From a virus: a stretch of DNA of 10,304 bases. The stretch is taken from the UHGV virus genome UHGV-1714029; one strand, written 5' to 3'. The notes beneath the pieces are model-generated. The model saw nothing but the letters and a program-made list of their open reading frames with translations. It was not told where the DNA came from and did no database searches. Shown here in pieces: positions 154 through 8,993 of this stretch; within the stretch, counting starts at the first letter, position 1, and each line of letters starts with the position of its first letter. The position numbers and the translations under genes are program-made.

Positions 154-202
154 ATGTATTCATTTCTATTCACTCTATACCATATTTTTCGGCGGTACAG
201 GT

Positions 203-238
203 GACGGTATTACCTTAAAGGTATACTCTCATACCGTC
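203..238. promoter_or_regulatory. Nested dyad-symmetry element upstream of int, containing an operator-like TTACC-N5-GGTAT site
   Basis: 8-bp inverted repeat GACGGTAT (203-210) / ATACCGTC (231-238) encloses TTACC-ttaaa-GGTAT (210-224), a 9/10 match to the palindrome found at the other phage promoters. Confidence 0.35.
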
Positions 239-266
239 ATGAAAATGGTTTCTATACGGGTGAATT

Positions 267-1517
267 GTGCTTACCGATACAAAATTAAAAAACCTCAAGC
301 CGCAGGACAAACTATACAAAGTCTCCGATCGTGACGGGCTGTATGTAGCTGTGCTTACGTCCGGTACGGTCTCGTTTCGCTATGACTACCGTATCAACGG
401 TCGCCGCGAAACACTGGTAATCGGGCAGTATGGGCGTGACGGTATCAGCCTGGCAGAAGCGCGGGAAGAACTGATTGCTGCAAAGAAGCTTCTTAAAGCA
501 GGCCAGTCGCCGGCTGCGGCTAAACGTGACGGTATCAAAAAGATTCGTGGTGCCGAGACGTTTGCGGTACATACCGACAGTTATATGAAACACGTCATCC
601 TGGCTGACAGTACCCGCGCAATGAAGCAGGCGGTGATCGACCGTGACATATTTCCGGTTCTTGGCAACAAAATGATGGCTGAAATTACCACATTGATGGT
701 TCGTGATTTGTGTGACCGGATTGTCGAACGCGGTGGTCGGGCAACAGCAGTACAGGCCAGGGAAATCATCAGCAGCGTATACCGTTACGCCAATGACCGT
801 GGTCATGGTTTGTTTAATCCTGCGGCTGACATTAAACCTTCGTCTATCGCCATATTTAAACCACGAGAGCGAACACTGACACCAGAAGAAATTGGCCTGT
901 TCTTCCGTACGCTGGATGCCATTGGTGCTATGGGCACTATGAAAATGGCTTTAAAGCTGGTGCTTATCACTATGGTTCGTAAAGGCGAATTCACCAATGC
1001 AACGTGGGATGAAATAGATTTTAAAAAATGGACATGGACAATTCCTTCAGACCGCATGAAGGGAAGCCGGGCGCACGTTATTTACCTGCCTAAACAGGCA
1101 CAGGATATATTGGTTGGGTTGCAGATGTGCGCTGGTGGAAGTGAATATCTGGTTCCTGGTCGTTACAATTTCCGGAAGCCATTATCTAATGCCGCGCTGA
1201 ACTCTCTGATCGACAGAACGGTGAAAATAATAAATGAAGATGGTGAGCATATTCAGGGCTTCACCGTACACGATATGCGCCGTACAGCCAGTACGTTGTT
1301 GCATGAGGCTGGTTATCCTTCAGACTGGATTGAAAAGGCTCTGGCACATGAGCAGAAAGGTGTGCGCGCCGTATATAACAAAGCGGAATACGCCAGACAG
1401 CGCGCCTACATGTTGCAGCAGTGGGCCGATATGATCGATTCCTGGATTGACGGGGAGCATACGGATCTGATTCCGTTCTCCCCGTCGAAGTTTGAGAAGT
1501 GGATGGCGGGGGAATAA
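267..1517 (+). CDS. int: Tyrosine site-specific integrase (P4/IntS-like phage integrase)
   Basis: GTG start at 267. N-terminus LTDTKLKNLKPQDKLYKVSDRDGLYVAV is typical of the integrase arm-binding domain; C-terminal catalytic region has HDMRRTASTLLHEAG (H-x-x-R) and a downstream Tyr (VYNKAEY). 416 aa. Confidence 0.9.
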   Translation: MLTDTKLKNLKPQDKLYKVSDRDGLYVAVLTSGTVSFRYDYRINGRRETLVIGQYGRDGISLAEAREELIAAKKLLKAGQSPAAAKRDGIKKIRGAETFAVHTDSYMKHVILADSTRAMKQAVIDRDIFPVLGNKMMAEITTLMVRDLCDRIVERGGRATAVQAREIISSVYRYANDRGHGLFNPAADIKPSSIAIFKPRERTLTPEEIGLFFRTLDAIGAMGTMKMALKLVLITMVRKGEFTNATWDEIDFKKWTWTIPSDRMKGSRAHVIYLPKQAQDILVGLQMCAGGSEYLVPGRYNFRKPLSNAALNSLIDRTVKIINEDGEHIQGFTVHDMRRTASTLLHEAGYPSDWIEKALAHEQKGVRAVYNKAEYARQRAYMLQQWADMIDSWIDGEHTDLIPFSPSKFEKWMAGE

Positions 1518-3061: not shown

Positions 3062-4084
3062 TTACTCGAATTCTGGACGCATATCGTTAAGCGTCATCAT
3101 GAATTTTTGGTGATATTCATCACCGAGCTTGTCAGCCATGGTGTTAATTTCATTTTCAGCGCGCTTGAACATCGTTTTTGCATCTTCAGCAGATGGATCC
3201 AGGCTATTAAGTATCGCGATGATATATTCTCGAGCTTCTTCTCGTTCTGAATCTGAAATTGGCGATAGGTGTTGACGCTCATCGTCAACTACGGAATATT
3301 CACCAGTGATAACAGCTGCGTTATCTTGGCTAAGTCCAGCTTCAGCGCGCTCATCCATAACAACAGCCTTCTGCATTTCAATAGAAACAGGAAGATATTT
3401 GAACAGTCGGCGAATTACTGTTTTTTTAGCCATCTCATCGAAGTGATCAACCCATGGGCCACTGCTACCGGCTTTGCTCAGTGCACGAACTTTCTCAACG
3501 TCTGCCCGGCTCATAACTTCAAATTGGACACCGCCATCTTTCAGTCGGGCAACGGCGTAAACGTGCGTTAGTTCTCCGCGGTCACCTGTTTCGCAAGGTA
3601 AATGCTCGAGCGTTTCTTCCAGGCCGTATGAGTAGCTGAATTTGTCGTTTGTATGTACGGTACGAGCCGAGATGCTCAGGATCTGCCCTGAGCGGCGGGC
3701 AAGGTCAATCATTCCGCGATAGCCGATAATCAGCTGTGCTTCTGTAGATACGGTTTCCCATCTTCCATTTACTTTCTGGCGTTTGTCGAACGGTATCAGG
3801 TAAGCGTGTCCAAGAGCTCCGCCTGGTTCAAGACCCAATTGGGCACATTGCATAATTGCCCCCAGGAAGCTGGCTTGGTCGCATGATGCAAGTTTTGGAA
3901 CCTTTCGGATCTCTGTGGTTGCTATGCGCGCCAGACGGTCTGCTGTCATGTGCTTTGGAAGTGCCAAAGCCATCTGAGCTTTAATTTTTGGGTCTGCCAG
4001 AAGTCCGGCCAGAGTTGTTGGTTTCTCATTATGATGTGCAACTTGGTTACCGGTAGCCGCTGCCTTAAGTGCATTGATAGACAT
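3062..4084 (-). CDS. recT: RecT family single-strand annealing recombinase
   Basis: 340 aa. Strong resemblance to RecT across the core (IATTEIRKVP, GAIMQCAQLGLEPG, GHAYLIPF, IIGYRGMIDLARRSGQ, THVYAVARLKDGG, EMAKKTVIRRLFKYLPVSIE). Strong SD AAGGAG before ATG 4084. Confidence 0.92.
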   Translation of the reverse strand: MSINALKAAATGNQVAHHNEKPTTLAGLLADPKIKAQMALALPKHMTADRLARIATTEIRKVPKLASCDQASFLGAIMQCAQLGLEPGGALGHAYLIPFDKRQKVNGRWETVSTEAQLIIGYRGMIDLARRSGQILSISARTVHTNDKFSYSYGLEETLEHLPCETGDRGELTHVYAVARLKDGGVQFEVMSRADVEKVRALSKAGSSGPWVDHFDEMAKKTVIRRLFKYLPVSIEMQKAVVMDERAEAGLSQDNAAVITGEYSVVDDERQHLSPISDSEREEAREYIIAILNSLDPSAEDAKTMFKRAENEINTMADKLGDEYHQKFMMTLNDMRPEFE

Positions 4085-4093
4085 TTTTTCTCC

Positions 4094-4993
4094 TTACTTC
4101 ATTCTGAAGACGCGTTGTGTCGTTGTTGTTTTGAATTTTTCGAATAACTCAGGGTGTACTGACTGGAATAGCTTCTGGTCGAATCTGTTGCTGATCTGAG
4201 ATTTCCATGTGCAGAGCGGCTTTCCGTCCAGGGTCAGGACTGAATGCTCTTGCATGTACATCTTCAGCTTCTCTTCTGATATAGCTATTTCTTCTTCCAG
4301 TGATTTTCTGCGTGACTTCATGTCTCGTAGATCGTTGAATAGTGCGAGTGCCTTTCCGTCAGCCTCGATACTTGTCCCGGCATCTTTCTCAAACATCAGC
4401 GATACATCGCTTACGCTGGTAGCTTCCGGCGGGTTAAGATTTTTCACTCGGTCCCAGAAAGCGATTTCTTTTTCTAAGATCGCCTGGATAGTTTCTTCAT
4501 CACGCTCAACCCGATAGATTCGGAAGTCGTCGCCACCGATAAGCACACCGAAAACGCATACCTGTTTGTTTGTAACCATCAACCCATGCATGGCCTGGGC
4601 CGTGTAATGCACAGGAATTGCATCTGTCTGGATTTCTCCCCATTCTTTGGCTTTGAACGGGCTAACTGTTTTGATCTCAATGTTCTCTCCTGACGCTGCT
4701 TCTGCATCGATCTCAGCTGCAATAAAATCGTAATCACGGTGGATATAGCGGTTTCCGCGATGAACGATTTCCATCCCTGTTTCCTCAGAAAGCAGGTCTA
4801 TTACGTATGGCTCCATACGCTGGCCACGCGTGAAAACTTTCTGCTTGCTTGGGTCTACTGGTTTGACACGTGGCTGGACCTTATCCAGATAAACCTCAAG
4901 CGGGGTGCGCCATGGGCTAATTCCAAGAATCCCTGCAACATCGCTTCCTCCGATGTATTTTCTTCTATCCATGATTCCAGCGTTCCGCATCAT
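4094..4993 (-). CDS. YqaJ-like (lambda Exo / RecE-type) recombination exonuclease, partner of RecT
   Basis: N-terminal YIGGSDVAGILGISPWRTPLEVY is the YqaJ signature. PD-(D/E)xK-like residues in DFIAAEIDAE...IEIKTV. ATG 4993 overlaps the upstream gene stop (ATGA); an alternative ATG lies 7 codons in. Confidence 0.85.
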   Translation of the reverse strand: MMRNAGIMDRRKYIGGSDVAGILGISPWRTPLEVYLDKVQPRVKPVDPSKQKVFTRGQRMEPYVIDLLSEETGMEIVHRGNRYIHRDYDFIAAEIDAEAASGENIEIKTVSPFKAKEWGEIQTDAIPVHYTAQAMHGLMVTNKQVCVFGVLIGGDDFRIYRVERDEETIQAILEKEIAFWDRVKNLNPPEATSVSDVSLMFEKDAGTSIEADGKALALFNDLRDMKSRRKSLEEEIAISEEKLKMYMQEHSVLTLDGKPLCTWKSQISNRFDQKLFQSVHPELFEKFKTTTTQRVFRMK

Positions 4994-5463: not shown

Positions 5464-5540
5464 TTACCGTTGAGGTAATGATTATGCGTATTTGGTTTGA
5501 TGTCAATAGATATGAGTTAAAAAAATTACCCATAAGGTAA
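5464..5540 (-). promoter_or_regulatory. Leftward early promoter region with two operator palindromes (OL-like)
   Basis: Perfect TTACC-N5-GGTAA at 5464-5478 and 5526-5540, flanking a perfect minus-strand -35 hexamer TTGACA (5506-5501). A -10-like CATAAT / TAATCA lies 14-16 nt downstream, overlapping the 5464 site. Confidence 0.5.
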
Positions 5541-5550
5541 TCTTGATGGC

Positions 5551-5577
5551 AATAAAAAAGCCGCCATGAGGCGGCTT
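5551..5577 (-). terminator. Rho-independent terminator of the repressor-like gene
   Basis: Minus-strand transcript reads AGCCGCC-UCAU-GGCGGCU followed by UUUUUUAUU, about 20 nt after the TAA stop at 5600-5598. Confidence 0.65.
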
Positions 5578-5597
5578 ACTTGCTGAAAACTATAGTT

Positions 5598-6182
5598 TTA
5601 TTGTTTATTTTTTTCGTTCTGGTTGATGACAAATTCAATGTAACTTTCGATCTTTGCTTTCTCGGTTTCGGGTAACAATGCGTAGCGCGAGCGGTCATAG
5701 TTGATGGTCGCAGGGTCGTGCGGGTGAATCAGTAATTCATAGCCGTGACGCCCGAATGCGGATGCAACATTCTCCAGGGTGGAAATGGAAACGCTGACTT
5801 CATTGTTTAACAGGCGGCTGATTGTCACCTGGGCGACGCCGGATGCGCGGTGAAGTTTTCCTTGTGTTGAAAGGTCGCGGCTTTCGCTCATCCAGCGTTC
5901 CAGGTTGTGAGCCGCCAGCTGACCAATGTCGCTTGGTCCGACAGGCTGAAAACCCTCCTGAGAAAGCGAGCGATCGATATCAAGCCAGTTACGTGGTTTA
6001 TTGGCGGCAGCTTCAATTTTTCGCGCAACCTGGTCGCCGATAACCTTCTTGCCAAGAGCCCAGCGGTTTACCAGATTTGCCTGAGTTCCAAGTTTTTCTG
6101 CCATCCGCGTCTGAACACCATTGAATTCACGGTCGATCAAGTCGTTGAGATTTTGCCTGCGGACGTCCTGGATACTTTTCAT
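5598..6182 (-). CDS. Repressor-like protein with two HTH (XRE/Cro-C1 type) domains and no S24 peptidase domain
   Basis: 194 aa. HTH 1 around TRMAEKLGTQANLVNRWALGKKVIGDQVARKIEAA; HTH 2 around ASGVAQVTISRLLNNEVSVSISTLENVASAFG. No Ala-Gly cleavage site or Ser/Lys dyad region. Divergent from a Cro-like gene across an operator-rich spacer. Confidence 0.7.
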   Translation of the reverse strand: MKSIQDVRRQNLNDLIDREFNGVQTRMAEKLGTQANLVNRWALGKKVIGDQVARKIEAAANKPRNWLDIDRSLSQEGFQPVGPSDIGQLAAHNLERWMSESRDLSTQGKLHRASGVAQVTISRLLNNEVSVSISTLENVASAFGRHGYELLIHPHDPATINYDRSRYALLPETEKAKIESYIEFVINQNEKNKQ

Positions 6183-6237
6183 TTTCTGGAAAATCGTCTC
6201 ATATATGAATCAGTAGATGATTCAATTTAAAGCAATA

Positions 6238-6300
6238 TTACCCAACAGGTAAATGCACCTCATAGGTAACTATCCTTGATTTTTGTTACCTTATGGGTGA
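6238..6300. promoter_or_regulatory. Divergent immunity-region operator cluster (OR-like, three sites)
   Basis: TTACC-caaca-GGTAA at 6238-6252 (perfect), GCACC-tcata-GGTAA at 6255-6269 (8/10), TTACC-ttatg-GGTGA at 6286-6300 (9/10), lying between the repressor-like ATG (6182, minus) and the Cro-like ATG (6337, plus). Confidence 0.55.
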
Positions 6301-6336
6301 ATATTTATTATCTGAAATAAATATCAGGCAATAGCT

Positions 6337-6567
6337 ATGAGCGATAACGGACATTTCGATTTCAAAAAGCACTGGCTTGCACTTACTCCGGATGAGCGTG
6401 AAGCCTTCGCACAGGAAGCCGGAACGACGAGTCACTATATCCAGACTCACTTAACAGGTAAGCGCAAAATGCCAGGTAAAGTATTGATGAATGGGCTTTT
6501 TAAAGCCTGTAAAACAAGACAATGGCTGCGCTCAAAAGCAGAACTGGCATACTTCTTCTACTCATGA
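6337..6567 (+). CDS. Cro-like HTH regulator (first gene of rightward early operon)
   Basis: 76 aa with an XRE-type HTH (FAQEAGTTSHYIQTHLTGKRKMP). Divergent from the repressor-like gene and followed by an intrinsic terminator. Confidence 0.6.
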   Translation: MSDNGHFDFKKHWLALTPDEREAFAQEAGTTSHYIQTHLTGKRKMPGKVLMNGLFKACKTRQWLRSKAELAYFFYS

Positions 6568-6588
6568 TATCCAGCTACAACCCTCTGT

Positions 6589-6611
6589 AGACCGCCACCC
6601 GGCGGTCTTTT
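6589..6611 (+). terminator. Rho-independent terminator after the Cro-like gene (tR1-like)
   Basis: AGACCGCC (6589-6596) and GGCGGTCT (6601-6608) form a perfect 8-bp stem with loop ACCC, followed by TTTT. Confidence 0.65.
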
Positions 6612-6622
6612 CATATCTATTC

Positions 6623-6637
6623 GTACCTCAAAGGTAA
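6623..6637. promoter_or_regulatory. Operator-like palindrome downstream of the tR1-like terminator
   Basis: GTACC-tcaaa-GGTAA, a 9/10 match to the TTACC-N5-GGTAA motif, about 80 nt upstream of the next gene. Confidence 0.4.
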
Positions 6638-6717
6638 TAAAAAACCAAATCTGGTTGATCTTTTTTTTGTGTCAGCACAAAATAACCGTAATCCCAATAC
6701 TAATAACAGGGCTTACC

Positions 6718-6918
6718 ATGGAAATCATTACACGTATTGATGCCGCAAAGCGCGGACTTAAACGCTATTACACCGGAAAACAATGTAAGCACGGACATGA
6801 CAGTGAACGCTGGGTTTACAACGGACACTGTGTTGAGTGCACCATGGAATCAAACCGTCGCATCAGGGCAGAGATTAAGCAGATCATGATTAATTCCTCC
6901 CCACAACATTCAAGCTGA
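6718..6918 (+). CDS. Small Cys/His-rich protein (putative zinc-binding regulator, cII position)
   Basis: 66 aa from ATG 6718 (SD AGGG 6 nt upstream): MEIITRIDAAKRGLKRYYTGKQCKHGHDSERWVYNGHCVEC... with a C-x-H-x-H ... H-C-x-x-C arrangement. The TTG-initiated 87-aa form in the ORF track is unlikely. Confidence 0.55.
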   Translation: MEIITRIDAAKRGLKRYYTGKQCKHGHDSERWVYNGHCVECTMESNRRIRAEIKQIMINSSPQHSS

Positions 6919-6933
6919 TAGCGGAGATTAATC

Positions 6934-7749
6934 ATGAGCAGACATGCAACAGATTGGGCCTGGGAGACAGATCCAGGTAGCTCGTCATTAAAGCTCATAC
7001 TGCTCTCGATGGCTGACAGAGCCGATGAATATAACCTCTGCTACCCCAGCATAGAACGCCTCGTTAAAGACACTTGCCTGAATAAAAAAACCGTGCAGGC
7101 CGGGCTTATATCGCTCATGAAAATGGGTCTTATTTCAGATACCGGAGAGAGAAAGGGGGCGACGAAAAGAGTACGGGTTTTCTCTCTTAATATAACCAAA
7201 AACGGGAACATTAAAGGCGACCGGGAGGGGGGTAATGAACCCGAAAACGGTAATGAACCCGAAAACGGGAATATACCCAAAAACGGGATGTTGAATGATC
7301 CCAAAAACGGGATGTTGAATGATCCCAAAAACGGGATCCAGAACCAGTCATATAACCAGTCATTTAACCAAGAGAGGGAGAGCAGGACAAAAAACGGGGA
7401 TTCTGTGCATCATGACCCCGGCGCAAACAACGCCGTGATGAATAACTTTGTTCCTCCTGGTGGGCCAGGGCAATTAGGCAAATTTGTCATGCATGAACAA
7501 TGGCAACCATCAGATGACTTTCTTCGGAAAAGCTCATTGCAGGGGATCTACCTGGACAGTCTGCCAACGGCACAGGAACTTGCAGAGTTCAGAATTTACT
7601 GGATGGCTGAGGGTAAGGCATACCATCAGGCACAGTGGGAGCAGAAGCTGGCAAGGCGGCTGCAGATTAGCAGACAGAAGCAATCAACATTATCTGATAA
7701 CAACGTTCCGCACTGGAACAGCCCTGAAGCATGGGAGGATTTCTTGTGA
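6934..7749 (+). CDS. Replication initiator, lambda O-like (N-terminal HTH domain, iteron-encoded low-complexity linker)
   Basis: N-terminus DWAWETDPGSSSLKLILLSMADRADEYNLCYPSIERLVKDTCLNKKTVQAGLISLMKMGLI is a replication-protein HTH. Middle NGNEPENGNEPENGNIPKNGMLNDPKNGMLNDPKNG is encoded by tandem DNA iterons. TGA stop overlaps the P-like GTG. Confidence 0.8.
   Translation: MSRHATDWAWETDPGSSSLKLILLSMADRADEYNLCYPSIERLVKDTCLNKKTVQAGLISLMKMGLISDTGERKGATKRVRVFSLNITKNGNIKGDREGGNEPENGNEPENGNIPKNGMLNDPKNGMLNDPKNGIQNQSYNQSFNQERESRTKNGDSVHHDPGANNAVMNNFVPPGGPGQLGKFVMHEQWQPSDDFLRKSSLQGIYLDSLPTAQELAEFRIYWMAEGKAYHQAQWEQKLARRLQISRQKQSTLSDNNVPHWNSPEAWEDFL
7196..7399. repeat. Iteron array / probable origin of replication embedded in the O-like gene
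   Basis: Seven copies of CC(C)-R-AAAACGGG: a tandem block 7231-7332 with unit lengths 18, 18, 18, 24, 24 bp, plus outliers at 7196-7206 and 7389-7399. Each has short dyad symmetry (CCCG-AAAA-CGGG), like the lambda ori iterons. Confidence 0.7.
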
Positions 7750-8531
7750 ACAACGTTTTTACCGCGATACAAAACCGTGACGGAGAAGCCCTTTCTCGCA
7801 TGTCAGGTTATGAGCATCAGTACACCAACAATGACAACGTGGTGAACATGTCAGCAGAGAGGCTTGTTGATGCCCTTTTCAAACAGCTGAAACAACTGTT
7901 TCCGGCGGCAGTGGTAACCAACCTGAAGACGCCAGAGCAGGAAGTTGCTGCAAAACAGCAGTGGATTGCTGCGTTTGCCGAAGGGGGGATCCGAACCCGT
8001 GAACAGGTTTCTGCTGGTATGCGCCACGCCCGCGCCAGTGAATCTCCGTTCTGGCCGTCGCCAGGGCAATTCATCAAGTGGTGTAAAGACAGCAAGATGG
8101 TTCTTGGCGTCACCATTGACGATGTGATGGCGGAGTTTCACCGGTACAGCAAGGAAAAAAGTTTATATCCTGGTGGTCCCGAAAGATTCCCGTGGCGACA
8201 TCCGGTTATGTACTGGGTCGTATGTGATACCCGCCGTGCAATGTATCAGCGCCAGCTTAGCGAGATTGAGGTTGAGAAACACGCGCGCAGGCTGCTCGAT
8301 GATTGGGCGAAAAAGGTGGCTTCCGGACAGCAGATACCCGATCCGGTGATCAGCATACAGGCAAAGCCAGAACCCATGAGTACGCCTCCGGACACAGGGA
8401 GAGACGTTTACCATCCACCAGGGCGAAGTTTCGGGTGCATGCCTAACGCCGCCACCCTTGGGGGAATAACACCGGCGCAGTGGCTGATGGAGGAATACAG
8501 GCGGGGAAAGGCGTCAGGATTTATCAAGTAA
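7746..8531 (+). CDS. Replication protein P-like (DnaB helicase loader, lambda P family)
   Basis: Conserved core AAKQQWIAAFAEGGIRTREQVSAGMRHARASESPFWPSPGQFIKWC resembles lambda P. GTG 7746 overlaps the O-like stop (GTGA) 6 nt after SD GGGAGGA; an in-frame ATG at 7731 is the alternative start. Confidence 0.85.
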   Translation: MNNVFTAIQNRDGEALSRMSGYEHQYTNNDNVVNMSAERLVDALFKQLKQLFPAAVVTNLKTPEQEVAAKQQWIAAFAEGGIRTREQVSAGMRHARASESPFWPSPGQFIKWCKDSKMVLGVTIDDVMAEFHRYSKEKSLYPGGPERFPWRHPVMYWVVCDTRRAMYQRQLSEIEVEKHARRLLDDWAKKVASGQQIPDPVISIQAKPEPMSTPPDTGRDVYHPPGRSFGCMPNAATLGGITPAQWLMEEYRRGKASGFIK

Positions 8532-8536
8532 TACCA

Positions 8537-8557
8537 GCGCGATAGCGCATTTTTTTA
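8537..8557 (+). terminator. Weak intrinsic terminator candidate after the P-like gene
   Basis: GCGC-GATA-GCGC, a 4-bp GC stem, followed by A and seven T residues (8549-8556). The stem is short, so this is tentative. Confidence 0.3.
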
Positions 8558-8568
8558 CGTCTCGATAA

Positions 8569-8645
8569 TTACCTTCGAGGTAATAAAATATTCTAAAATC
8601 TATTGATTTCGTGTCTTATGTGGTTTTTAATTACCTAAGGGGTAA
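8569..8645. promoter_or_regulatory. Promoter/operator region upstream of the DUF1064 gene with two perfect operator palindromes
   Basis: TTACC-ttcga-GGTAA at 8569-8583 and TTACC-taagg-GGTAA at 8631-8645; TTGATT at 8604-8609 is a possible -35. The second site overlaps the RBS of the gene starting at 8649. Confidence 0.5.
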
Positions 8646-8648
8646 ATC

Positions 8649-8993
8649 ATGAGAAAACAGATACAGGCTCTTGGTCGACTCAAAACAGGCCAGATGAACA
8701 AAACAGAATCTGCGTATTGCCAGCACCTTGAGCTGCGTAAACGTGCAGGAGAAATCGTCTGGTATCGATTTGAGGGTATCAAGCTGCGGTTAGCTGACAA
8801 CACGTTCTATACGCCCGATTTTGCTGTGATGCTCGCCACCGGCGAGATGGAACTGCACGAAGTGAAAGGTTTCTGGAGCGACGACGCCAGGGTGAAAACC
8901 AAAGTCGCCGCAGATCAGTATCCGTTCCGAATCATCGGGGTAACGGTTAAACCAAAGAAAGCAGGTGGTGGCTGGAACATCGAAAAGTTCTGA
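8649..8993 (+). CDS. DUF1064-like phage protein with PD-(D/E)xK nuclease-like motifs
   Basis: 114 aa. YTPDF followed by ELHEVKG fits a PD-(D/E)xK core (D ... E-x-K). This family is typically found next to phage replication genes. Confidence 0.7.
   Translation: MRKQIQALGRLKTGQMNKTESAYCQHLELRKRAGEIVWYRFEGIKLRLADNTFYTPDFAVMLATGEMELHEVKGFWSDDARVKTKVAADQYPFRIIGVTVKPKKAGGGWNIEKF

Follow-up and report, generated by a model that had tools for sequence, protein, structure and literature searches.

The sequence analysed here is a stretch of 10,304 nucleotides of the virus genome UHGV-1714029, called the window below. It covers the 10 kb next to attL in a phiV10/epsilon15-like (Uetakevirus) prophage inserted at guaA and starts in the guaA 3' end. 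A 15-bp palindrome, TTACC-N5-GGTAA, is repeated in it. The repetition is real, and reading the palindromes as operators is correct. We assign them to the main repressor, Rep, in the Rep-Ant lysis-lysogeny switch of Uetakevirus podophages, with a probability of about 0.88. The identification of the operators and of Rep is firm. It is also largely a rediscovery: the motif already figures as a repressor site in the record of phage epsilon15, and structural work on this repressor family exists. This is not a new kind of system.

An earlier note on this DNA had listed five perfect copies of the palindrome, TTACCNNNNNGGTAA, and four variants. A scan of the window located all of them. The perfect copies are at 5464-5478, 5526-5540, 6238-6252, 8569-8583, and 8631-8645, and the variants are at 210-224 (9/10 specified positions), 6255-6269 (8/10), 6286-6300 (9/10), and 6623-6637 (9/10). 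The expectation of about 0.01 perfect palindromes per 10 kb, also given in that note, is right (4^-10 × ~10,290 positions), and none of 200 dinucleotide-preserving shuffles of the window produced any perfect palindrome. When up to two mismatches were allowed, ten matches appeared against 2.9 expected. The sites had further been claimed to be confined to intergenic DNA. This was confirmed by the whole-window scan, in which nine of nine listed sites had zero coding overlap. Non-coding DNA makes up only 956 of the 10,304 bases (9.3%), which gives P ~5e-10 for all nine sites falling there. The tenth match, an 8/10 site at 6447-6461 that had not been listed, lies within a gene for a 76-aa protein. 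It was taken as a chance match, as it fits the 2.9 expected and is not conserved in phages Tyrion or epsilon15.

The binding protein had been left unassigned in the earlier note, with the repressor-like, the Cro-like, and the AlpA-like proteins as candidates. It can be assigned to Rep. In the epsilon15 records (AY150271.2 and NC_004775.2), seven 'protein_bind' features carry the bound moiety 'repressor' and the note 'lysogeny', and all of them read (A)TTACC-N5-GGTAAT. Three are located between gp37 and the repressor gene, in the homologue of the 5464/5526 region of the window. One precedes the gene that follows the replication genes and corresponds to the window site at 8569. The remaining three are ahead of the terminase, gp3, and tail-fibre genes. 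Only these seven, which conform to a 16-17 bp pattern, are marked in the record. Present in epsilon15 and unmarked are three sites between the repressor gene and gp39, the second site of the pair before the gene following the replication genes, and a lysis-gene site. The earlier note went somewhat further than this record. Half-sites, spacing, positions of the shared early modules, late-gene sites, and the orthologous repressor gene (gp38) are alike in the two phages. On the other hand, epsilon15 has a third operator at its leftward promoter, 76 bp further on, its spacers are A/T-rich, and its Rep is only 42% identical to that of the window. Operator features are absent from the records of phiV10, of the other phages examined, and of the RefSeq entry for E. 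coli 85.0412. A full-text literature search for the motif returned no match.

Rep (5598-6182, minus strand) is a protein of 194 aa that falls into helix-turn-helix (HTH) families. It is 100% identical to phiV10 gp40 and to ORF21 of phage ZX5. Overexpression of ZX5 ORF21 reduced free phage to zero and lowered the endolysin and holin transcripts by 99.99% and 99.97%, respectively (PMC9782041). Residues 1-190 of Rep align with residues 2-197 of the Rep of phage SPC32H (PDB 5D50_A, E 4e-42). It is a full-length homologue, although its identity to the SPC32H and epsilon15 repressors is 42%. Secondary accounts of SPC32H (PMC9986798, PMC9638917) describe its Rep as a tetramer on palindromic sites, in which the N-terminal domain binds DNA, the middle one dimerises, and the C-terminal one serves both tetramerisation and Ant binding. 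According to the same accounts, the DNA-binding pairs are drawn from different dimers, and a tetrameric antirepressor, Ant, strips Rep from DNA. By homology, the window protein has the same architecture, with an N-terminal HTH DNA-binding domain (~1-72), a middle HTH-like dimerisation domain, and a C-terminal domain for tetramerisation and Ant binding. The strong Pfam HTH_3 match at residues 106-147 corresponds to the dimerisation domain of SPC32H Rep, and the predicted DNA reader is the weaker N-terminal HTH at ~21-61. The domain search yielded HTH families only and no S24 peptidase domain in Rep. The putative recognition helix, NLVNRW, is invariant in the Rep of six genera and has the form NL[VI][NS]RW among 41 distinct Reps from IMG/VR. 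This near-invariance, in spite of an overall identity of 42%, would explain why the half-site is shared across the relatives.

Co-occurrence of site and repressor was examined by scanning IMG/VR for the paired motif, defined as two perfect sites 46-48 bp apart. At least 120 loci were obtained. Among the matches listed, 90 have a Rep homologue and 30 do not. Each of these 30 loci has one flank shorter than ~3.1 kb, which does not exceed the distance to rep from a motif pair of the kind found before the DUF1064 gene, in the pairs seen. Therefore, rep could lie beyond the end of the locus. Among the paired-motif loci listed from IMG/VR, none was demonstrably without Rep. The counterpart of Rep in the switch was found as well. 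The phiV10 protein gp24 aligns over nearly its whole length with SPC32H Ant (E 3e-46 to 5D50_E). Its gene is at 20543-20800 of phiV10 (L007, minus strand) and at 34610-34867 of the complete prophage of E. coli 85.0412 (L100, minus strand). In the latter, a LexA box CTGTATAAATATACAG that matches the consensus is positioned just upstream of the Ant homologue (L100:34889). The window itself contains no LexA box, and the ant gene lies outside it. In phiV10-type prophages, then, an Ant homologue stands behind a LexA box and the same palindrome occupies the same loci as in SPC32H. The close conservation of Ant between phages whose Reps are only 42% identical suggests a conserved Ant-binding surface and possible cross-induction. 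Judged from sequence, the prophage switch is of the epsilon15/SPC32H Rep-Ant type, and every defining feature that could be examined here was found.

The arrangement of the sites was compared in 12 genomes, which comprised the window, the phages Tyrion, BUCT554, BUCT711, epsilon15, and SPC32H, and six prophages from Superficieibacter, Erwinia dacicola, Klebsiella pneumoniae, Citrobacter werkmanii, Citrobacter braakii, and Scandinavium. The motif occurs at the same four loci in all 12 genomes. Two of these loci, here called PL and P3, carry operator pairs. Measured from start to start, the operators of a pair are separated by 61-63 bp in each of the 24 modules, 20 of which have exactly 62 bp. 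In the direction of transcription, the conserved module consists of the distal operator, 19 nt, a -35 element CTATTGA(C/T/A), 17 nt, and a -10-like hexamer that ends on the first T of the proximal operator. A distance of 62 bp corresponds to ~5.9 helical turns, so the paired operators would be on the same face of the helix.

The predicted PL promoter is on the minus strand at 5478-5506, with the -35 TTGACA at 5506-5501, a 17-nt spacer, and the -10 AATCAT at 5483-5478. The TTGACA that had been noticed between the 5464 and 5526 sites is thus present as TTGACA-17-AATCAT. PL matches the promoter consensus at 10 of 12 positions in the promoter scan, and CTATTGAC is invariant in the PL alignment. 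Its proximal operator, TTACCGTTGAGGTAA (5464-5478), overlaps the -10 by one base, the last of the hexamer, and extends over ~-7 to +8, if the -10 is assumed to span -12 to -7. The distal operator, TTACCCATAAGGTAA (5526-5540), is 19 nt upstream of the -35 (~-69 to -55). An intrinsic terminator at 5558-5577 (minus strand), which is also annotated in phiV10, is located downstream of rep and separates it from PL. The P3 module is preceded by a terminator at ~8537-8556. Its distal operator (8569-8583) is homologous to the epsilon15 site 35906-35922 annotated 'repressor', and its proximal operator, TTACCTAAGGGGTAA (8631-8645), is a perfect copy. These are the two sites that had been placed before the DUF1064 gene, which begins with the ATG at 8649. 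The spacer and right half of the proximal one double as the Shine-Dalgarno region of this gene (TTACCTAAGGGGTAAatcATG). The predicted P3 promoter (8603-8631, plus strand) was read by eye and is weak, with the -35 TTGATT at 8603-8608, 17 nt, and the -10 TTTAAT at 8626-8631. The promoter scan of the window did not call it. Its CTATTGA is conserved in the 12 genomes, and the offsets between promoter and operators equal those in PL.

The other two loci have weakened operators. Three sites had been described between divergent regulator genes, and this was borne out by the analysis, as rep (5598-6182, minus strand) and the gene of the Cro-like protein (6337-6567, plus strand) bracket sites a, b, and c of the OR region. 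Site a (6238-6252) is perfect, covers ~-73 to -59 of the rightward promoter PR, and overlaps a putative -35 of the leftward rep promoter. Site b (6255-6269, 8/10, GCACC...GGTAA) is 17 bp from site a and covers ~-56 to -42 of PR. Site c (6286-6300, 9/10, TTACC...GGTGA) is 31 bp from site b, within the PR spacer, and overlaps the -10. The predicted PR (6276-6304, plus strand) was also read by eye, with the -35 TTGATT at 6276-6281, 17 nt, and the -10 GAATAT at 6299-6304. The promoter scan chose an overlapping TTGTTA-17-TATTAT rather than these hexamers. The TTGATTTTT of PR is conserved in all genomes compared, and the epsilon15 counterpart is TTGATT-17-AATAAT. In every genome, site a follows ~55 nt after the rep start codon, site b 2 nt further on, and the TTGATT of the PR -35 after another 6 nt. 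Site c begins 4 nt beyond this element and runs into the -10. One half of site c is degenerate in every genome examined (GGTGA, or TCACC, ACACC, or CTACC on the other strand).

The fourth locus, P2, follows the gene of the Cro-like protein. An intrinsic terminator at 6589-6608 (plus strand), also annotated in phiV10, precedes the site at 6623, in agreement with the earlier placement of this site after a tR1-like terminator. The distal operator (6623-6637, 9/10, GTACC...GGTAA) is 17 nt upstream of the -35, and in six of six genomes compared its GGTAA half is invariant while the other half is degenerate. The predicted P2 promoter (6655-6687, plus strand), assigned to gp42 and the replication genes, has the -35 TTGATC at 6655-6660, 17 nt, and the -10 CAAAAT at 6678-6683. 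A lone half-site, TAACC (6683-6687), is at the expected start of the proximal operator, where epsilon15 has a perfect TTACC. The geometry of P2 agrees with that of PL and P3. Of these predicted assignments, that of PL is well supported by geometry, and those of PR, P2, and P3 are weaker.

The candidate that comes closest to Rep is its neighbour, the Cro-like protein of 76 aa. It was assigned to phrog_35 (E 5.6e-13) and is predicted to be a five-helix HTH protein. Its single-sequence structure model has a predicted local distance difference test score (pLDDT) of 81.6. The top fold matches are YdaS and lambda/434-repressor-like proteins, with template modelling (TM) scores of 0.56-0.62 and all E values of at least 1, so that they are consistent with an HTH and not decisive. 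The segment AGTTSHYIQxHLT, its putative recognition region, is invariant in the six genomes compared, each of a different genus, and its gene is always beside the sites. It could therefore be proposed that this protein specifically reads TTACC-N5-GGTAA and that Rep acts elsewhere. We regard this as very improbable. The depositors of epsilon15 credited the sites to the repressor. At least 14 sites spread across all transcription units suit a maintenance repressor better, and paired sites suit a tetramer that carries two DNA-binding pairs. The lysis genes are silenced when Rep alone is overexpressed (PMC9782041). Besides, an IMG/VR lineage (L173/L118) has a changed cro helix, AGTTAGYIAAHYC, with 5-6 substitutions, and a Rep helix changed by one residue (NLVSRW). 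All three of its OR sites keep TTACC and GGTAA. A changed cro helix with unchanged operators mildly favours Rep as the primary reader. As in lambda, sharing of the sites by both proteins is likely. Our assignment to Rep includes such sharing, with the Cro-like protein probably reading the same operators as a second reader.

Other binders are slightly less credible still. The window encodes an AlpA-like protein, a PerC-like activator, and an MT-A70 methylase for which the motif might be a modification target, and a host regulator could also be imagined. One site, at 210-224, does fall within the attP arm region, on which Xis and Int act. However, three sites are located exactly between rep and cro and overlap promoters, and the sites follow Rep while accessory genes differ, as in SPC32H and BUCT711, whose sets of methylase and accessory genes are not the same. 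Direct repeats adjoining att are the usual targets of excisionases. The AlpA-like protein is of the excisionase type and is an unlikely reader of dispersed palindromes, contrary to its inclusion among the earlier candidates. A target of methylation or restriction, for its part, would not keep to 9% of the DNA.

Natural variation was used to see which bases of the sites are constrained. The set consisted of 80 IMG/VR prophages with 100% identical Rep and differing intergenic DNA. Each haplotype was counted once. PL regions came in 56 distinct forms and P3 regions in 59. Only 6% of half-site positions were polymorphic (mean minor frequency 0.007), compared with 60% of spacer positions (0.129) and 21% of other intergenic positions (0.026). 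In Mann-Whitney tests, half-sites differed from spacers with P = 2e-11 and from other intergenic positions with P = 6e-4. These values are indicative only, as the haplotypes are phylogenetically related. Among 80 distinct sites from the 12 genomes, the ten specified positions are 94-99% conserved. The flanks are only mildly biased (56% of sites have A at -1 and T at +15), and W is preferred at the centre. The weakened half-sites of OR are constrained too. The GCACC half of site b is conserved across the phiV10/Tyrion/Enterobacter/Erwinia group, and both this half and the weakened half of site c are invariant among the 80 variants. This invariance of weakened half-sites indicates that they are maintained and suggests tuned affinities. 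The N5 spacers at 5469-5473, 5531-5535, 6260-6264, 8574-8578, and 8636-8640 are hypervariable, with ~3 times the polymorphism of intergenic DNA, and look free or even diversifying. The exception is site a, which is wholly invariant among the 80 variants, its spacer (6243-6247) included.

No compensatory change between the arms was found across the 80 distinct sites, which argues for reading by a sequence-specific protein and against a hairpin. That the palindromes work as hairpins in RNA or DNA, whether as terminators, as processing sites, or as structural elements, is accordingly the least probable explanation of all. Every site can fold a 4-5 bp stem, and the RNase III sites near int in the epsilon15 record overlap the homologue of 210-224. 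However, the stems, at -2.6 to -3.9 kcal/mol, are weak and have no T-tracts, a search of Rfam gave no match to the window, distal sites are upstream of the -35 where transcription from those promoters is not expected to cover them, and the arms are invariant in sequence while the loops vary freely.

Several points weigh against the assignment to Rep or limit its reach. We infer the physical binding of Rep in this phage from homology and site placement, and it could not be confirmed that the published SPC32H operator is TTACC-N5-GGTAA. The genes of Rep and the Cro-like protein are always adjacent, so co-occurrence cannot separate them, and the argument from the divergent cro helix presumes which residues touch DNA. 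The hexamers of P3, P2, and PR are weak matches to the consensus, and two of them were not called by the promoter scan. Bridging of 62 bp by one tetramer is a purely geometric argument, and the site at 210-224 may be no operator at all.

The following mechanism is proposed. The TTACC half-site would be read by one N-terminal HTH of Rep through the putative helix NLVNRW, and the tetrameric state of Rep would provide two DNA-binding pairs. In the lysogen, the two operators bracketing the PL or P3 core promoter would be filled, and RNA polymerase would be blocked. Each 62-bp pair would probably be bridged by one tetramer or by two interacting tetramers. This suggestion comes from the tetrameric state of the SPC32H homologue together with the strict in-phase spacing. 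At OR, the sites 17 and 31 bp apart, with a weakened one in PR and two overlapping the presumed rep promoter, would be occupied to graded degrees and probably mediate autoregulation. Behind the cro terminator, the module with weakened operators would control the replication genes. Induction would not proceed by RecA-mediated cleavage. Instead, the small LexA-controlled Ant, encoded elsewhere in the prophage, would pull Rep off the DNA. During lytic growth, the Cro-like protein would probably read the same sites.

A stronger version of the proposal can be imagined, in which the module is a fixed promoter clamp. In-phase operators 62 bp apart, at ~-62 and +1, would be held by one tetramer through its two trans-paired DNA-binding units, and the arrangement would be repeated at each terminator-bounded transcription unit over at least 14 operators. 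Weakened half-sites would set the order of derepression, and no antitermination cascade would be needed. We consider this version doubtful, though not fanciful. If it were true, a single repressor would silence the whole genome directly, late and lysis genes included. The clamp geometry was not found described in the literature searched, which did not cover the primary epsilon15 and SPC32H papers. It is possibly new, as are the conserved weakened half-sites, the spacer hypervariability, the overlap of operator and ribosome-binding site, and a second palindrome described at the end of this text.

The layout had been likened to OL/OR of lambda. The resemblance holds for the layout only. In both phages, divergent repressor and cro genes flank a three-site operator that overlaps early promoters, and the palindromes match their consensus to graded degrees. 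However, the half-site is different, and PL is flanked by two operators 62 bp apart instead of three adjacent sites. The lambda repressor has an S24 autocleavage domain, whereas the C-terminus of Rep is a tetramerisation domain of the SPC32H type, and induction is expected to depend on an antirepressor. Lambda represses only PL and PR and controls the rest by antitermination. Here, the operator-promoter modules follow terminators, so each terminator-bounded unit has its own Rep-marked promoter, and late genes carry sites. In the complete genomes, additional sites stand ahead of the terminase and the lysis cassette, and also ahead of the gp6/gp3 region and the intergenic region between ant and the tail-fibre gene. 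Closer parallels in one respect are the loop-forming repressors Rco of pLS20, LacI, and Stl of SaPI1 (PMC9986798, PMC9638917), which are likewise tetramers with two DNA-binding units acting on paired in-phase operators around a promoter. Unlike theirs, looping at the Rep sites is suggested by spacing, and the 62-bp distance and the motif are specific to this phage family.

The operator map has several possible uses. It can be applied to annotation, since the records lack operator features and that of epsilon15 omits OR. It can be applied to the design of induction-proof or inducible reporter phages based on phiV10. In addition, the structure of the SPC32H Rep tetramer can be read against the 62-bp pairs and the 17/31-bp triplets. 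Relatives with this immunity region occur in Salmonella, Klebsiella, Enterobacter, Citrobacter, and Erwinia.

The site upstream of int needs separate treatment. The regulon had been said to extend to late-early and int promoters. Its extension to P2 and P3 and, in complete genomes, to the terminase, portal-region, tail-fibre, and lysis genes is supported, and its extension to an int promoter is not. The 9/10 site TTACCTTAAAGGTAT (210-224) lies between inverted copies of GTGACGGTAT, at 201-210 (plus strand) and, as a near-copy, at 231-240 (minus strand). Exact copies of this 10-mer are also found at 436-445 and 526-535 and another near-copy at 779-788 (minus strand), so that two exact copies and one near-copy fall within the int coding sequence. 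In the epsilon15 record, the 10-mer is an integrase-binding (arm-type) site, and the enclosing inverted repeat is an RNase III site. The epsilon15 homologue of 210-224 has the same GGTAT mismatch and is unmarked as a repressor site. The promoter scan predicted no sigma-70-like promoter near 210-224. The role of an int-promoter operator is therefore unsupported, and the position between arm-type sites makes the site ambiguous. It may be a weak operator coupling Rep to int expression or recombination, or equally a by-product of the arm sites.

The element that carries the sites is well defined. Its immunity region is 98% identical to that of Escherichia phage phiV10 and its close relatives ZX5, PAS61, phiv142-3, and TL-2011b, and ~77% identical to that of Enterobacter phage Tyrion, all of them members of the genus Uetakevirus (epsilon15-like podophages). 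The att core attgagtgggaatgatt at 59-75 adjoins guaA and is the attachment site reported for phiV10, epsilon15, and ZX5 (PMC9782041). The integrase gene (267-1517) is followed by a leftward operon with genes for a DUF1382 protein, the MT-A70 methylase, the PerC-like and AlpA-like (excisionase-type) proteins, RecT, a YqaJ exonuclease, and two small open reading frames (ORFs). Then come the repressor gene (minus strand), the gene of the Cro-like protein, a small Cys-rich ORF, and DnaT-like and lambda-P-like replication genes. The DUF1064 gene (PHROG: Holliday-junction-resolvase group) and eae-like and ead-like genes complete the order. The immunity region of the window was found in 541 of 5,426 complete E. 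coli genomes. In E. coli 85.0412, a 1.28-kb immunity region is identical to that of the window, and the complete prophage is bounded by att cores at 60 and 39,957 (L100). It has 15 sites with at most one mismatch, of which 12 are intergenic and two more fall in a probably mis-called terS start.

These two operators, 18 bp apart, are within the annotated 5' end of terS in both E. coli 85.0412 (L100:12373-12405) and phiV10 (L007:87-119). In epsilon15, the homologous operator pair is just upstream of the terminase start. The phiV10-type terS start codon has probably been called ~26 codons too early. Another difference of annotation concerns the leftward operon. RecT (3062-4084) and the YqaJ exonuclease (4094-4993) are separate genes in the window, as in epsilon15, and the phiV10 record has a single 1,761-nt 'RecET fusion' at the corresponding place. 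Either the left operon is mosaic, or phiV10 differs by a frameshift or in its annotation.

More distant relatives of Rep were also observed. A genome scan gave five loci from Paraburkholderia, Hydrogenovibrio, and Thiomicrospira with a 35-40% identical DNA-binding domain. In the two that were translated (L095 and L096), the recognition helix differs from that of Rep. These loci lack the motif, and no clear alternative palindrome emerged. The missing motif gives weak, negative support to co-variation of helix and operator. L095, a metagenome-assembled genome of Paraburkholderia, has a distant Cro-like homologue (AGTTETYITVKL...FFY; 3659-3922, minus strand) divergent from a repressor gene (3572-4717, plus strand). 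The N-terminus of this repressor is Rep-like (MKSIQDVRR...), and its C-terminal part does not align with Rep. The intergenic DNA contains ACAACC-type repeats and no TTACC-N5-GGTAA.

Lastly, a second palindrome, ~A(A/T)CCATAT(A/G)TGGTT (ACC-N6-GGT), is found 20-53 bp downstream of a TTACC-N5-GGTAA operator. In the window, it is at 6643-6656 (AACCAAATCTGGTT), 8614-8626 (CTTATGTGGTTT), and ~5488-5501. In phiV10, it occurs at L007:3305, 20539, 20918, 24736 (a perfect AACCATATATGGTT), and 33132. In epsilon15, it occurs at L008:2985, 19937, 24748, and 33749, where the record leaves it unannotated. It sits in or beside the -35 or spacer of P2, P3, and late-gene promoters. With up to three mismatches, phiV10 has eight matches against 1.8 expected, a number reached in none of 100 shuffles. 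This palindrome could be an element of the promoters or could be bound by a second regulator, for instance a late activator.

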